Origin: Candidatus Hydrogenedentota bacterium
Lineage (GTDB): Bacteria; Hydrogenedentota; Hydrogenedentia; Hydrogenedentales; SLHB01
Assembly (NCBI GenBank): GCA_963745075.1
Contig: CAVUWV010000009.1
Location: forward strand, 96,001-160,000
Reading direction: 5' to 3'
DNA: 64,000 nucleotides
How positions within the stretch are numbered: position 1 is the stretch's first letter; each line of letters begins with the position of its first letter. Shown here one piece after another: positions 16,889-20,203 of the stretch. Under the pieces are notes generated by a model. It saw only the letters and a list, made by a program, of their open reading frames with translations, was not told the DNA's origin and did no database searches. The translations under genes were made by a program, and so were the position numbers.

Positions 16889-18652
16889 ATGAGAAAAGTG
16901 CTATTGGGGGGGTATTCCGGCAACAGTTTCTTTGGGCGGGGGCTTGCGGCGCTGATACTTACGTCAGTGGTAACCATGCTATCTGCTGCGGCGGAAGGCG
17001 TCGAAGCGGATCAGACGGTCGTTGCGTCTACGCTCATCGAGAGTATAGGGGAATTGGCGCCTGATGAGACTCCGCGAATCGCGGTGGACAGTCGGGGCGT
17101 CGTGACCCATTTCGCCGCGCCACGGGGGCACTCGATGAGCGTGGAGGGCGCGTCGCCGGATGACGGCAAGGACCAACGGGCCTTGAAATTCGTGGAAACG
17201 CACGCGCAAGCGCTCGGGCTCGCCAGCGACCGTGTTGGACTGAACGTCCACGCCATCACCACGACCCCGGAACGCTCGTATGTGCGAATCAAACAGCAGT
17301 ACGACGGAATCCCGATCCACGGCGCGGAAATCGTCCTGCAACTCCAGCCGGACGGCACGGTGAAGTCATTTCTGGCGGATATCATGACCGAGACCGCCGC
17401 TCTGGACGCGGACCCGGGGGCCACGGAACCGGGGTTGAACGCGGCCGAAGCCGCCGAGTCCGTCCTGGAAATCGCCAGTGAACGCCTCCAGAAGGCGCAG
17501 GAGAAATACCGGTCCGATGTGACATTGGCGGTCGAATCGGGAGAAATCGACGCGGAAACGGCGCAAGAACACCTCGATCAAGCAAGCGCAGCAGTCGCGG
17601 AGCTTACAGACAACGGCGGACTTCAGATTTACGCGCCGCACGTTATCGGCGATTCCGGCACGAACGCGCTGGTTTGGGTTTTCAAGGTAGATGACACGGC
17701 GGGAATCACGAAACCGGTGCAAATATTTATCGACGCAGATACTGGAGAGTTGGTTCACGTGAATCCACTCGTTGCGGACGCCATAGACAGAAGACTCTAC
17801 GACAATCACCTCAATGGATTGGATGGAATCCCGAATGCGACGCTGCGCCGCACAGAAACGAGTGGTCCGGTGACAATATTCGACACAATCTTTTTTGCCG
17901 ATTTCAATGCCCACTGGGACATTCTTGGATATGTGTACGACTATTTCGATGAGAACCACGGATGGGACGGCTGGGATGGGGTTGGCGGGTCGATATACTC
18001 GTACATACGGTTTGATCTCGTATCCAACGCCGTATGCGATACAGATAACGGTTACATGTGGTTCGGGACAAACGGGATCGCGGTCTCGGACGACGTGGTG
18101 GGACACGAGTTCACACACGCCGTGGTGCACGGCGTGTGTGAACTGCAATACTGGAGACAATCAGGAGCAATCTCAGAATCCTTGGCTGACATGTGGGGCG
18201 AGTTCATTGACTGGTCGTGCCCCGTTTTGGGAAATGATTTGGCGTCAGTGAAGTGGCAAATCGCTGAAACTATCGGAAGTGGACCACTTAGGGACATGCA
18301 GGATCCACACCAACGTCTTCAACCGGACATATATCAGGGCACGTACTGGGTTTACGGGAACGGCCAAATGACAGAAGAGGAAAATGACGTCTTTGTCCAT
18401 ACGAACAGCGGAGTCGGCAACAAACTCGCATATTTGCTCACCGACGGCGACACGTTCAATGGCAGTTTTGTCAGTGGCATGGGGGTAGCGGTAGTTCGCG
18501 ACCTGTATTGGGAAACCGTACAGCTGATGGGAACAAGCTGCAATTACCACGATCTCCATGACCTATTATTGGATGCAGCGGACAATCTAGACCTGACCAC
18601 CGGCCAGGTTGATAACATCCAAGCCGCCTGCGAAGCCGTTGAAATTGACTGA
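16889..18652 (+). CDS. Secreted M4-family (thermolysin-like) zinc metalloprotease with FTP/PepSY propeptide
   Basis: Signal peptide; VRIKQQYDGIPIHGAEI (FTP); IFIDADTGELV (PepSY); DVVGHEFTHAV (HExxH); SGAISESLAD (third ligand E); VHTNSGVGN (catalytic His). Confidence 0.93.
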   Translation: MRKVLLGGYSGNSFFGRGLAALILTSVVTMLSAAAEGVEADQTVVASTLIESIGELAPDETPRIAVDSRGVVTHFAAPRGHSMSVEGASPDDGKDQRALKFVETHAQALGLASDRVGLNVHAITTTPERSYVRIKQQYDGIPIHGAEIVLQLQPDGTVKSFLADIMTETAALDADPGATEPGLNAAEAAESVLEIASERLQKAQEKYRSDVTLAVESGEIDAETAQEHLDQASAAVAELTDNGGLQIYAPHVIGDSGTNALVWVFKVDDTAGITKPVQIFIDADTGELVHVNPLVADAIDRRLYDNHLNGLDGIPNATLRRTETSGPVTIFDTIFFADFNAHWDILGYVYDYFDENHGWDGWDGVGGSIYSYIRFDLVSNAVCDTDNGYMWFGTNGIAVSDDVVGHEFTHAVVHGVCELQYWRQSGAISESLADMWGEFIDWSCPVLGNDLASVKWQIAETIGSGPLRDMQDPHQRLQPDIYQGTYWVYGNGQMTEEENDVFVHTNSGVGNKLAYLLTDGDTFNGSFVSGMGVAVVRDLYWETVQLMGTSCNYHDLHDLLLDAADNLDLTTGQVDNIQAACEAVEID

Positions 18653-18706
18653 GGCCAAGTGAGGCTCCCATATGATGGCACAGGACAATAGAAAAGGAGT
18701 GATCAC

Positions 18707-18886
18707 ATGTCAAGAATAAGACTCGTGAGCCGGGTTCCCTTCGTCGATCCGTTGCTCCCGGCACCAGCTATTCAAGCGGAAACCCCGAAGGAGCGATACA
18801 AGACCTGTGAAGACGAGCAAACGTCCCTGATAGGCAAGGCCGCCTGCTACCGCACGCTGGTACAGGAGAAACTTACGGGCAAGTAG
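18707..18886 (+). CDS. Small paralogous peptide P1 (59 aa)
   Basis: Not in ORF track. AAAGGAG RBS; MSRIRLVSRVPFVDPLLPAPAIQAETPKERYKTCEDEQTSLIGKAACYRTLVQEKLTGK*. Confidence 0.85.
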   Translation: MSRIRLVSRVPFVDPLLPAPAIQAETPKERYKTCEDEQTSLIGKAACYRTLVQEKLTGK

Positions 18887-18994
18887 TCCAAACTCACGTT
18901 GAGAATTCTTGGAAAACAGGGGTCGAGTGGCAGTTCTCGTAGAGCGCTGTTCGCTACTTTCTTCAGTACCATGATGAAAGGCAAAGTATTCGCA

Positions 18995-19174
18995 ATGGAT
19001 AGAATTCGAAGCATGAGTCGTGTGCCATTCGTCGAGAATCGCAGGCCCGCCGTGGCGGTCTGGCAAGGGAACGCGGTCACCCACTTGAAGGAGTGTCTCT
19101 CGCACCAGACCACGGTCCGTGGCAAGAAGGAATGCTACGAGACGTACCAGGCGGAGAAAGCTGAGAAGCAGTAA
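18995..19174 (+). CDS. Small paralogous peptide P2 (59 aa)
   Basis: MDRIRSMSRVPFVENRRPAVAVWQGNAVTHLKECLSHQTTVRGKKECYETYQAEKAEKQ*. Start chosen by alignment to paralogs. Confidence 0.82.
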   Translation: MDRIRSMSRVPFVENRRPAVAVWQGNAVTHLKECLSHQTTVRGKKECYETYQAEKAEKQ

Positions 19175-19200
19175 CAGGGATTCGTGGTGAGGTATGAGTC

Positions 19201-19380
19201 ATGCATAGAATCAAGTCTGTCAGCCGCATTCCCGTCGCCACACAGCCGCGATACGCGGCGCTTCCCCCTTCTGCATGGGAGCACTACAAGGCTTGTGTAA
19301 ACGAGCAATCGACGTTGGCTGGCAAGAAGGAGTGTTTCCGCAATTATATCGGGGAGCGTTCCGAGGATAAAAACCCATAG
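19201..19380 (+). CDS. Small paralogous peptide P3 (59 aa)
   Basis: Not in ORF track. GAGG RBS; MHRIKSVSRIPVATQPRYAALPPSAWEHYKACVNEQSTLAGKKECFRNYIGERSEDKNP*. Confidence 0.85.
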   Translation: MHRIKSVSRIPVATQPRYAALPPSAWEHYKACVNEQSTLAGKKECFRNYIGERSEDKNP

Positions 19381-19395
19381 TCTGGAGAGGGTGCG

Positions 19396-19701
19396 ATGTA
19401 CTGGGTGTTCGCGTTTGGCGCAGGTATCGGCGCCAACGGAAACCAGCTCCGCGCTTGGACGCACGCTAATGGTTGCGTGGGCAATAGACTTGCCTATCTA
19501 CTCACGGACGGCGAAACGGTTAACGGGATGGGCGAGTTACCCGTGCGGGAACTTTATTGGGAAACCCTCCAATTGATGCCGGTCGATCCCGATTACAATG
19601 ACTTGTATCAATTGCTTTTAGACGCAGCAGACAATCTCGGTATGTCGCCAGCAGAAGTGAGCAATATCCAGAATGGTTGTGAGGCCGTCGAGATCGACTG
19701 A
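19396..19701 (+). CDS. Stand-alone/orphan copy of the M4 protease C-terminal domain (no HExxH)
   Basis: VGNRLAYLLTDG, LYWET.QLM, LLLDAADNL and CEAVEID* are shared with the end of 16889..18652; GGAGAGG precedes the ATG. Confidence 0.8.
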   Translation: MYWVFAFGAGIGANGNQLRAWTHANGCVGNRLAYLLTDGETVNGMGELPVRELYWETLQLMPVDPDYNDLYQLLLDAADNLGMSPAEVSNIQNGCEAVEID

Positions 19702-19752
19702 GTGCGGAAGTCATTCAACCCAACTTACCTTAACAGAAAAAGGAGTGCTCGA

Positions 19753-19932
19753 ATGCGCAGAATCAAGTCTGTCAGCCGCGCCCCGTTTGCCGGTCCGATT
19801 CCTGCGGCGGCAATCCGGGAGATGGAACCGTGGGAGTACTGGTTGGCCTGTCTGATCAGTCCCCTATCCTGGATAATCGGCATAAAGGGATGCTACTGCT
19901 CCTATAGCCATGATTGGACACAAGAAACTTAG
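19753..19932 (+). CDS. Small paralogous peptide P4 (59 aa, divergent hydrophobic core)
   Basis: AAAGGAG RBS; MRRIKSVSRAPFAGPIPAAAIREMEPWEYWLACLISPLSWIIGIKGCYCSYSHDWTQET*. Confidence 0.85.
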   Translation: MRRIKSVSRAPFAGPIPAAAIREMEPWEYWLACLISPLSWIIGIKGCYCSYSHDWTQET

Positions 19933-20017
19933 GAGGGCTTCGGATACCGGTGCGTCAGCCGCTCGATCGTACACCGGGCGACGGATGGGTGCGGGCGAAA
20001 CGAATGAGATCTCACTG

Positions 20018-20203
20018 ATGGGTAGAATCAAGCGTGTGAGCAGCGTTCCGTTTGTCCATGGTTCGATTCCGGCGCCTGCGGTTTTGCCGGAAACTGATTC
20101 GGAACGCTACAAGGCGTGTCTTGACAAGCAGACCACGCTCGGGGGCAAGGTGGGCTGTTTTGTCGACTATATGATCGCGCTTTCCGACAAGAGCCAACTG
20201 TAG
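20018..20203 (+). CDS. Small paralogous peptide P5 (61 aa)
   Basis: MGRIKRVSSVPFVHGSIPAPAVLPETDSERYKACLDKQTTLGGKVGCFVDYMIALSDKSQL*. RBS is weak. Confidence 0.82.
   Translation: MGRIKRVSSVPFVHGSIPAPAVLPETDSERYKACLDKQTTLGGKVGCFVDYMIALSDKSQL

Follow-up and report, generated by a model that had tools for sequence, protein, structure and literature searches.

The window analysed here is a stretch of 64,000 nucleotides (nt) from a Candidatus Hydrogenedentota bacterium (GenBank assembly GCA_963745075.1, contig CAVUWV010000009.1, positions 96,001 to 160,000 of the forward strand). At 16889–20203, between a thioredoxin reductase gene (trxB) and the gene for a 2-oxoacid oxidoreductase beta subunit, it carries a locus in which the gene for a thermolysin-type protease of family M4 is followed by genes for five paralogous mini-proteins with two conserved cysteines (P1 to P5, referred to below as the peptides). 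The system consists of a protease and small-protein partners encoded with it, the latter belonging to a peptide family that, as judged from database and profile searches, is new and without described relatives. Sequence comparison shows the small open reading frames (ORFs) to be real genes under purifying selection, and shows that their linkage to one clade of short M4 proteases and to a promoter-like element is conserved. We tentatively favour the reading in which the mini-proteins are a battery of dedicated substrates of the co-encoded M4 protease.

The peptide family

The genome carrying the window is referred to as G000 (estimated to be 89.7 % complete) and the congeneric genomes as G001 to G005 (G001 81 % and G002 93 % complete); the locus in the window is G000:C9, and a second locus lies on contig C18 of the same genome. 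P2 to P5 align to P1 at 36–46 % identity, and ten columns, including two Cys, are invariant among the five window copies. A profile built from these five copies alone recovered three further copies on C18 (E 5.5e-28, 3.8e-17 and 3.7e-16; the next match in the same genome had E 0.44), and the homology is therefore beyond chance and not circular. The preliminary description of this DNA, which had called the five peptides of 59, 59, 59, 59 and 61 residues homologous, is borne out in this respect. By using an eight-member profile, 32 further copies were found in four congeneric genomes, with E down to 1.7e-23.

The features of the family were read from an alignment of 38 sequences (A3), which left out a G002 copy with a degenerate head and a G004 copy cut by a contig end. 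Only Met1 and the two Cys are invariant (38/38). The head follows the consensus M-x-R-I-[KR]-x-[VI]-S-R-x-P and is continued by a variable stretch and the motif P-A-x-A, in which P18 is present in 35, A19 in 32 and A21 in 34 of the 38 sequences; 34/38 have F, V, I, A, L or Y at residue 22. The C-terminal part reads [YF]-K-x-C-...-Q-T-T-[LVI]-x-G-K-K-x-C-[YF], and its hydrophobic loop position is occupied by L, V or I in 31/38 and by K in 5/38, the latter being one subfamily. Among 52 family sequences the Cys are spaced C-x12-C in 45 and C-x13-C in seven, and in several subfamilies a His stands beside the first Cys (CHSHQ, CHFHA). When 50 members were divided crudely by motif, the head had a mean net charge of +3.9 and the rest one of -1.

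Structure prediction with AlphaFold2 (AF2) and the family alignment gave a mean predicted local distance difference test score (pLDDT) of 75. Residues 1–26 were modelled as coil (block-mean pLDDT 60–78), followed by helices at 27–37 and 41–57 with one Cys in each. The overall architecture is a basic, disordered head of ~21 residues, a hydrophobic residue and a helix-loop-helix of 38–40 residues with a Cys-bracketed loop; the two invariant Cys, one per predicted helix, may form a disulfide.

Coding status and selection

In most of 39 copies the ATG or GTG is preceded by a purine-rich stretch that resembles a Shine-Dalgarno site, and stop codons lie directly upstream of most peptide starts. The start codon is missing at the aligned position in two copies, one each in G002 and G005; for the G005 copy an ATG one codon upstream was taken as the start, and the G002 copy is the one with the degenerate head. 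Independent gene callers have predicted family proteins in public data.

Ratios of non-synonymous to synonymous substitution rates (dN/dS) were calculated by the Nei-Gojobori method for peptide pairs at least 60 % identical. They lie between 0.07 and 0.53 in 35 of the 45 pairs, dS being saturated in the other 10, so that dN/dS is below 1 in every calculable pair; purifying selection had been named beforehand as a test of the peptide ORFs. Values of dS of 0.3–2 are reached without loss of the reading frame, of either Cys or of the loop motif. Pooled over 12 hand-picked pairs, with each sequence used once, dN/dS is lowest in the hairpin (0.15), against 0.29 in the N-terminal head, 0.25 in the middle and 0.28 in the tail.

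A maximum likelihood tree of 52 members, which rests on few columns and has many open forks, places P1, P2, P4 and P5 in four separate, well-supported clades, each with copies from other species, and leaves P3 without resolved placement. The paralogues therefore predate the species and have stayed distinct.

Novelty and spread

The preliminary description did not recognise the peptide family, and the database searches agree. No Pfam family matched any of 38 peptides at E <0.02, and Emfourin was not among the five families matching at E up to 1; NCBIfam, PADLOC and PHROGs gave zero peptide matches, and a defence or phage origin is therefore without support. A sequence-profile search of the PDB gave as its best hit an unrelated protein (E 0.12) and no solved inhibitor, a Foldseek comparison of the peptide model with the PDB returned no match at E <=0.001, and a peptide homologue stored in the ESM Atlas, from which the window peptide itself is absent, gave no usable match. 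A six-frame search of the genome with PF20242 (Emfourin) found nothing. Descent of the peptides from a segment of the protease was considered and rejected, the profile-profile comparison showing no relation (probability 0.1). In the literature, covered as listings and abstracts with subscription literature outside the scope, no description of an M4 protease with an array of paralogous two-Cys peptides was found.

The phylum was searched in six frames with a 38-member profile (135 genomes, 66 genera), following an earlier search of the order (61 genomes). Peptides are present in five of the six genomes of one Hydrogenedentota genus and in 0/129 other genomes of the phylum. G002 has nine copies, G003 12, G005 10 and G004 one, which is cut by a contig end; in G001, of the same genus, no peptide and no short-type protease was found. 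Public collections hold 18 family proteins among 5.8 billion and ~19 clusters among 1.84 billion representatives and, where source names are given, these are "hypothetical protein" and metagenome-assembled genomes of Candidatus Hydrogenedentota. Two sets of matches were set aside: a hit in G038 (E 0.0013, 28 residues) was treated as noise, being gone at E <=0.001 with the larger profile, and the long repeat proteins P0035–P0037 (E 2e-6 to 4e-4) were kept out of the family count as low-complexity repeats (P0035 and P0037 were inspected).

The M4 protease and its C-terminal copy

The protease precursor is 587 residues long when read from the ATG at 16889; a longer frame starts from a TTG at 16850. 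It matches PF02868 (E 1.5e-23) and PF01447 (1.6e-9), both above their cut-offs, and the propeptide family PF07504 (FTP; 5.7e-8, 32.9 bits, cut-off 21); the PepSY match is weak (E 0.16). From the N terminus it is made up of a signal peptide, an FTP and PepSY-like propeptide and the catalytic domain, and it is without C-terminal extension. The signal peptide, read by eye from the alignment as MRK..LAALILTSVVTMLSAAA/EG, is of the Sec type and ends in A-x-A. The HExxH of family M4 is present as HEFTH, the downstream Glu that serves as third zinc ligand lies in GAISES and the catalytic His in FVHTNSG; the active-site columns H, E, H, E, H are invariant in a 19-member alignment. Together with the predicted secreted zymogen form and the FTP-type propeptide, these features mark the protein as a bona fide and probably catalytically active M4 enzyme. 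The AF2 model of the precursor has pLDDT 78.6 and a predicted template modelling score (pTM) of 0.72. Throughout the protease clade the linker from propeptide to mature part reads P-L-[AV]-A-x-A-[IV], and in the model it coincides with a low-confidence stretch (295–298) that joins the last strand of the propeptide to the first of the mature part.

The closest PDB entry is thermolysin (5a3y, E 5e-19), with protealysin much further away (4.3e-7). The clade is tight: in the protein collection, 11 other proteins are 63–72 % identical and the next is at most 31 % identical. M4 genes were matched in 44 of the 61 genomes of the order, nearly all in frames of more than 1100 residues and at 33–45 % identity. 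Full-length short M4 proteases at >=65 % identity occur in these 61 genomes only in G000 (twice), G003 and G005, the next best being 33–37 % identical in frames of more than 1100 residues. In their distribution the short M4 clade and the peptides agree. A search of metagenome contigs with the protease as query gave two distant loci only (30–35 % identity).

A perfect inverted repeat of 17+17 nt with a 3-nt loop was observed at 18108–18144 within the protease gene, where it covers exactly the codons for HEFTHAVVHGVCEL and with them the zinc-binding HExxH. There is no such palindrome at the aligned site in the C18 paralogue or the G005 orthologue, and the aligned G003 stretch covers the right arm only. 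A template-switch (quasi-palindrome) mutation and an RNA hairpin are possible readings of the repeat, which leaves the residues of the motif intact.

The 101-codon frame between P3 and P4 carries its own GGAGAGGG motif and ATG and matches the last half of PF02868. Direct repeats D3–D5 place it 1049–1056 nt from the matching 3′ end of the intact gene. It is 72 % identical to the C18 paralogue versus 57 % to the adjacent intact gene, and synonymous sites are saturated. Most likely it is what remains, at the left edge, of a partial tandem duplication of old date that comprised the 3′ end of the protease gene together with peptide genes. The possibility of a recurrent, functional mini-protein family made from C-terminal protease fragments was dropped, as among proteins of 55–177 residues the window fragment matched only itself, although the pair of fragments in G002 gave dN 0.09 and dS 0.43.

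Linkage of protease and array

At the second locus of the genome, C18, a paralogous protease (68 % identical, 407/600 residues) is followed by three peptide genes related to P2, P4 and P1, the last of which is shortened by a TAG. Arrays lie directly 3′ of a short M4 gene at G000:C9, at G000:C18, in G003 and in G005, and 3′ of M4 remnants in G002. All five arrays with an assembled 5′ end thus follow a short M4 gene or its remnant (the 5′ ends in G004 and at G005:C334 are cut by contig ends), which answers positively the question, raised before the search, of whether homologues co-occur with M4 genes. In G003 and G005 protease and array are on one strand, and at most ~100 nt separate the protease stop codon from the start of the array. 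G003, G004 and G005 share a common chromosomal position, and the two G000 loci and the G002 locus represent three other contexts, so that four sets of flanking genes are seen: trxB/oxidoreductase; aminotransferase/GHL10; aldo-keto reductase with TPR/heparinase; and alaS/RGL11-FGE. No case was found of one partner lacking even a remnant of the other. Because the linkage is kept while the flanking genes differ, protease and array travel and persist as one unit.

The DNA upstream of the protease gene contains a promoter-like element made up of TTGACA (16780–16785), a spacer of 18 nt and TGT-TAGTGT; a GGGGGA ribosome-binding site and the protease ATG follow ~60 nt downstream. TTGACA and CGTG.TA..GT are invariant in the window, at G000:C18 and in G003, G005 and G002, and by blastn the window segment 16766–16828 matches the DNA directly upstream of the protease remnant in G002. 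A consensus scan missed the site because its -10 element matches at only 3/6 positions. From its conservation, we infer that the element acts as a sigma-70-like promoter.

In G002, contig C243 (locus L037) carries at 6842–7260 (minus strand) the first 18 codons of the M4 gene, a signal-peptide stub, joined out of frame to its last 89 codons.

The region around the C18 locus (L010, G000:C18:185000-201000) showed two further features. ORFs at ~3230–4790 and 3560–5020, read by eye from the ORF list, resemble bacterial microcompartment shell proteins and lie ~1.5–3 kb upstream of the second protease locus. In the intergenic stretches there, likewise by eye, certain motifs turn up repeatedly in translation (IPL.RG.., PPSKGE.F.TL) and point to a repeated DNA element.

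Possible roles of the peptides

The conserved linkage is the main argument for a functional tie between protease and peptides. If the peptides are dedicated substrates, one sigma-70-like promoter would drive a Sec-exported, thermolysin-type zymogen and 3–12 old, diverged paralogous mini-proteins. The protease would remove the basic head at P-A-x-A/hydrophobic, cleavage would release a set of distinct, Cys-stapled hairpin peptides, and these might act extracellularly as signals or antagonistic peptides. Cleavage and its site, export, the disulfide and the biological role are steps that we infer. Thermolysin prefers a hydrophobic P1′ residue, and P-A-x-A/hydrophobic therefore fits a thermolysin-type processing site; the P-L-[AV]-A-x-A-[IV] linker of the protease itself resembles the P-A-x-A motif of the peptides. 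The predicted layout of disordered head, P-A-x-A and hairpin is compatible with a leader/core precursor, and the old, distinct paralogues fit a product cocktail, as in multi-peptide loci. The compactness of the module and its lowered G+C content are counted in favour of this reading as well.

Several observations weigh against processing of this kind. Inspection of the 38 aligned heads revealed no Sec or Tat signal and no hydrophobic H-region, the stretch R9–P18 being short and often charged (ENRR, RRRDGRR), and no leader end of the type GG, GA or GS. A Pfam scan of 50 window ORFs and of the flank ORFs of four other loci found no exporter and no radical SAM, YcaO, LanB/C/M, ATP-grasp or similar enzyme, in agreement with the earlier statement that the window lacks a tailoring enzyme and an ATP-binding cassette (ABC) exporter; the one C39 match in the genome is marginal and lies on another contig (23.7 bits over 49/133 positions). 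Because neither export signal nor exporter was found, the Sec-exported protease and the signal-less peptides would not meet without an unknown route. DsbA, DsbB, VKOR and Thioredoxin_4 homologues were not found in the 89.7 %-complete genome, which leaves an enzyme-made disulfide without support. The "conserved leader, variable core" that the preliminary description had seen is contradicted by the substitution rates: the Cys-flanked hairpin, not the head, is the most constrained part, unlike in classical leader/core precursors. With hidden Markov models of the head only and of the core only, the same eight family genes and no others were matched in the genome. The likeness between linker and peptide motif extends over 4–6 residues and could be chance. 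Prediction of a complex of the mature protease (residues 290–587, 19-row alignment), Zn and a peptide (38-row alignment) scored 0.00 in both runs, which were made without controls, and counts neither for nor against any reading. All instances of the linkage come from one genus and are therefore not independent. Finally, G002 keeps the promoter and has two M4 fragments, no intact short M4 gene was found elsewhere in this 93 %-complete genome, and eight of its nine peptide genes are intact (three of these with shortened heads). Because promoter and array are kept with a deleted protease, the array can outlive the protease, at least temporarily, and the deletion argues against strict dependence on the cognate enzyme.

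The substrate reading can be extended to a two-part production system, in which a Sec-exported M4 protease and signal-less precursors would together yield a cocktail of Cys-stapled hairpins for signalling or antagonism, the basic heads doubling as an unconventional export tag and as the site of protease recognition and cleavage, with neither tailoring enzyme nor dedicated transporter. In this extended form we consider it doubtful.

A different role would be that of an inhibitor or immunity array that blocks the co-encoded M4 protease or those of competitors. The segment Q-T-T-[LVI]-x-G-K-K might serve as a substrate-like reactive loop, or a Cys thiol might ligate the catalytic zinc, and the signal-less peptides would guard the cytoplasm as emfourin does against protealysin; this pair sets a precedent for an operon of M4 protease and inhibitor (PMC9505478). 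The Cys-bracketed loop is the most constrained part of the peptides (dN/dS 0.15) and presents L, V or I (31/38) where a thermolysin-type enzyme wants its P1′ residue, the two Cys are the sole invariant residues besides Met1, an export signal is absent as it would be from a cytoplasmic protein, and the operon linkage is conserved. However, the peptides are not emfourins, having no Pfam match and no PF20242 hit in the genome, the PDB profile search returned no solved inhibitor (best E 0.12), and one subfamily has K at the hydrophobic loop position (5/38). Moreover, 5–12 old, distinct paralogues per protease are unlike the known inhibitor pattern, G002 retains its array without an intact cognate protease, and a cytoplasmic guard seems unnecessary because the protease has its own FTP/PepSY propeptide and Sec signal. 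An inhibitor function is, on balance, unlikely.

The peptides could also be lineage-specific small cytoplasmic proteins with a role apart from proteolysis, such as metal-binding or redox-sensing hairpins that dimerise via their Cys pairs, or regulators, which share with the protease a promoter and a duplication-prone locus. The absence of an export signal on inspection and of a detectable Dsb system would agree with this, the His beside the first Cys (CHSHQ, CHFHA) suits metal binding, and in G002 the array persists behind its promoter after deletion of the protease. Adjacency to one M4 clade is nevertheless kept in four contexts, with neither partner found without a remnant of the other; the disordered head, the P-A-x-A motif and the small stapled hairpin have no obvious rationale in such a protein, and amplification to 12 diverged tandem copies is more typical of secreted or interaction-driven families. 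We regard this explanation as about as unlikely as an inhibitor function.

That the small ORFs are frames open by chance, in a non-coding repeat downstream of the protease gene, is essentially excluded: random ORFs are common in a G+C-rich genome and no RNA run is listed for the region (16889–20203; four DNA runs each contained <=0.08 of the sampled words), but dN/dS is well below 1 in every calculable pair, frame, Cys pair and loop motif are preserved at dS 0.3–2, and Shine-Dalgarno-like stretches, upstream stop codons and independent gene-caller predictions accompany the frames. The remaining probability falls to functions outside the readings listed here.

Locus organisation and flanking genes

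The coordinates are collected in Table 1. The order of the M4 gene, P1 to P3, the C-terminal copy, P4 and P5, all on the plus strand, was confirmed in the ORF list and the raw sequence as first described. Spacers within the module measure 15–108 nt, and no terminator-like sites were found between its genes. The names trxB and korB had been proposed for the flanking genes; the former holds, its TIGR01292 score being above the cut-off, and the latter is fair but inexact because the PorB_KorB score falls below its cut-off.

Table 1. Features of the M4 protease-peptide locus and its flanks (window coordinates).
Feature	Position	Strand	Evidence and remarks
trxB, thioredoxin-disulfide reductase	15599–16546	-	TIGR01292, 401.7 bits (cut-off 343)
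Candidate promoter region	16766–16828	+	upstream regions of five loci aligned; window-G002 blastn
M4 protease precursor, 587 residues	16889–18652	+	PF02868, PF01447, PF07504; ATG 16889
P1, 59 residues, two-Cys, 'IQAETPKERYK.CE.EQT' subfamily	18707–18886	+	AAAGGAG 8 nt upstream; clade support 98/91 (members G000:C18, G003, G005); dN/dS vs C18 copy 0.16
P2, 59 residues, two-Cys, 'W.GNAVTHFKEC.SHQTTVSGKKEC' subfamily	18995–19174	+	clade support 97/92; dN/dS vs C18 copy 0.12
P3, 59 residues, two-Cys, '...EDKNP' tail	19201–19380	+	GGTGAGG upstream; tree gives no resolved subfamily placement
Protease C-terminal copy, 101 codons	19396–19701	+	PF02868 8.7e-6; ~residues 485–587 of the M4 protease
P4, 59 residues, divergent 'EPWEYW.ACL..P..W..G.K.CY' subfamily	19753–19932	+	C-x13-C, third Cys; AAAGGAG upstream; clade support 100/98; dN/dS vs C18 copy 0.40
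P5, 61 residues, two-Cys, '...CFVDYMIALSDKSQL' subfamily	20018–20203	+	clade support 99/98 (G002, G003, G005, one metagenome protein); dN/dS vs G003/G005 copies 0.15
2-oxoacid:acceptor oxidoreductase beta subunit	20283–21353	-	PorB_KorB subfamily, 215 bits (cut-off 261.9)

The G+C content of the module is 0.51–0.56 versus 0.59–0.63 in the flanks; the values of 0.51–0.56 apply to 17600–19400, which covers the 3′ part of the protease gene and the peptide array, and those of 0.59–0.63 to the flanking housekeeping genes. The low content is compatible with a foreign origin or with differing constraints. The parts of the window that were examined showed neither an integrase nor a tRNA nor boundary repeats, and an Rfam scan of 16400–20400 gave zero matches.

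Other features of the window were noted in passing. On the minus strand at 21350–23204, the alpha subunit of the 2-oxoacid:acceptor oxidoreductase is encoded in two ORFs overlapping by ~140 nt, of which 22218–23204 corresponds to TIGR03710 positions 1–237 and 21350–22357 to positions 247–559; the split is either a frameshift or an assembly error. The window Pfam scan also placed a BlaR1-type M56 peptidase fragment beside a Penicillinase_R repressor gene (3319–5433, minus strand) and a lone PIN-domain gene at 12465–12842 (plus strand), both ordinary features.

Significance

The finding is real and clearly bounded, and the gene family is new; its spread is narrow, being one genus in the genomes searched, and the roles proposed for it are tentative. 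An undescribed peptide family is here tied to a separate clade of short M4 proteases, and this in an uncultured phylum whose secreted-peptide biology is almost a blank. Should the peptides prove to be substrates, the locus would combine protease and precursors in a module of unusual simplicity, and M4 enzymes would be added to the leader peptidases known so far; the two-part production system, if true, would be the first of its kind in the uncultured phylum Hydrogenedentota. Should they be inhibitors, they would be a second family of protein inhibitors of thermolysin-type enzymes after emfourin, unrelated to it; since M4 proteases often act as virulence or spoilage enzymes, that outcome would be of interest in practice.

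Comparison with known systems

The nearest functional parallel is the protealysin-emfourin pair of Serratia proteamaculans. Both proteins are encoded in one operon, and emfourin binds the active-site region of the protease 1:1 and also inhibits thermolysin (PMC9505478). The likeness lies in an M4 gene followed in the same operon by the gene for a small, signal-less protein, which in the case of emfourin is functionally tied to the protease. Protealysin is described in the same text as intracellular (PMC9505478), whereas the window protease, which carries a Sec signal and a propeptide of the FTP/PepSY type, is nearer to thermolysin (E 5e-19) than to protealysin (E 4.3e-7). Each operon has a single emfourin gene, and the model PF20242 is 91 positions long; the loci described here hold 3–12 paralogues of 59–61 residues without PF20242 match.

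Loci for multi-precursor RiPPs (peptides made ribosomally and modified post-translationally) and class II bacteriocins share with the present system tandem, diverged paralogues with an N-terminal segment, an adjacent protease and a single transcription unit. They differ in that no tailoring enzyme, RiPP recognition element, C39-ABC exporter or immunity gene stands beside any of the loci studied here, in the lack of a double-glycine leader, and in the nature of the "core", which in the window family is a conserved folded scaffold and not hypervariable. We know of no described class with an M4 leader protease in such a layout.

The plant alpha-hairpinins and vicilin leader peptides resemble the family in shape only, its predicted fold being two antiparallel helices with one Cys in each, and vicilin leader hairpins (7lvf, 7uv4, 7uv2, 7lxk) are among the weak Foldseek rows, which are not significant (E 4–10, probability <=0.12). 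Alpha-hairpinins carry two CxxxC pairs; the window family has one C-x12-C pair and no sequence relation to them. SMPI of Streptomyces and IMPI of insects are small, Cys-containing, substrate-like inhibitors of thermolysin-type enzymes that are secreted with signal peptides and show a hydrophobic P1′ residue in a loop. The Q-T-T-[LVI] loop of the peptides could likewise present a hydrophobic P1′ residue to the M4 active site; size, number of Cys and fold are unlike those of SMPI and IMPI, and no PDB chain matched in sequence. By the features that define them, the system falls outside both the leader-protease/precursor loci and the protease/inhibitor operons, and it is these two classes that it most resembles.

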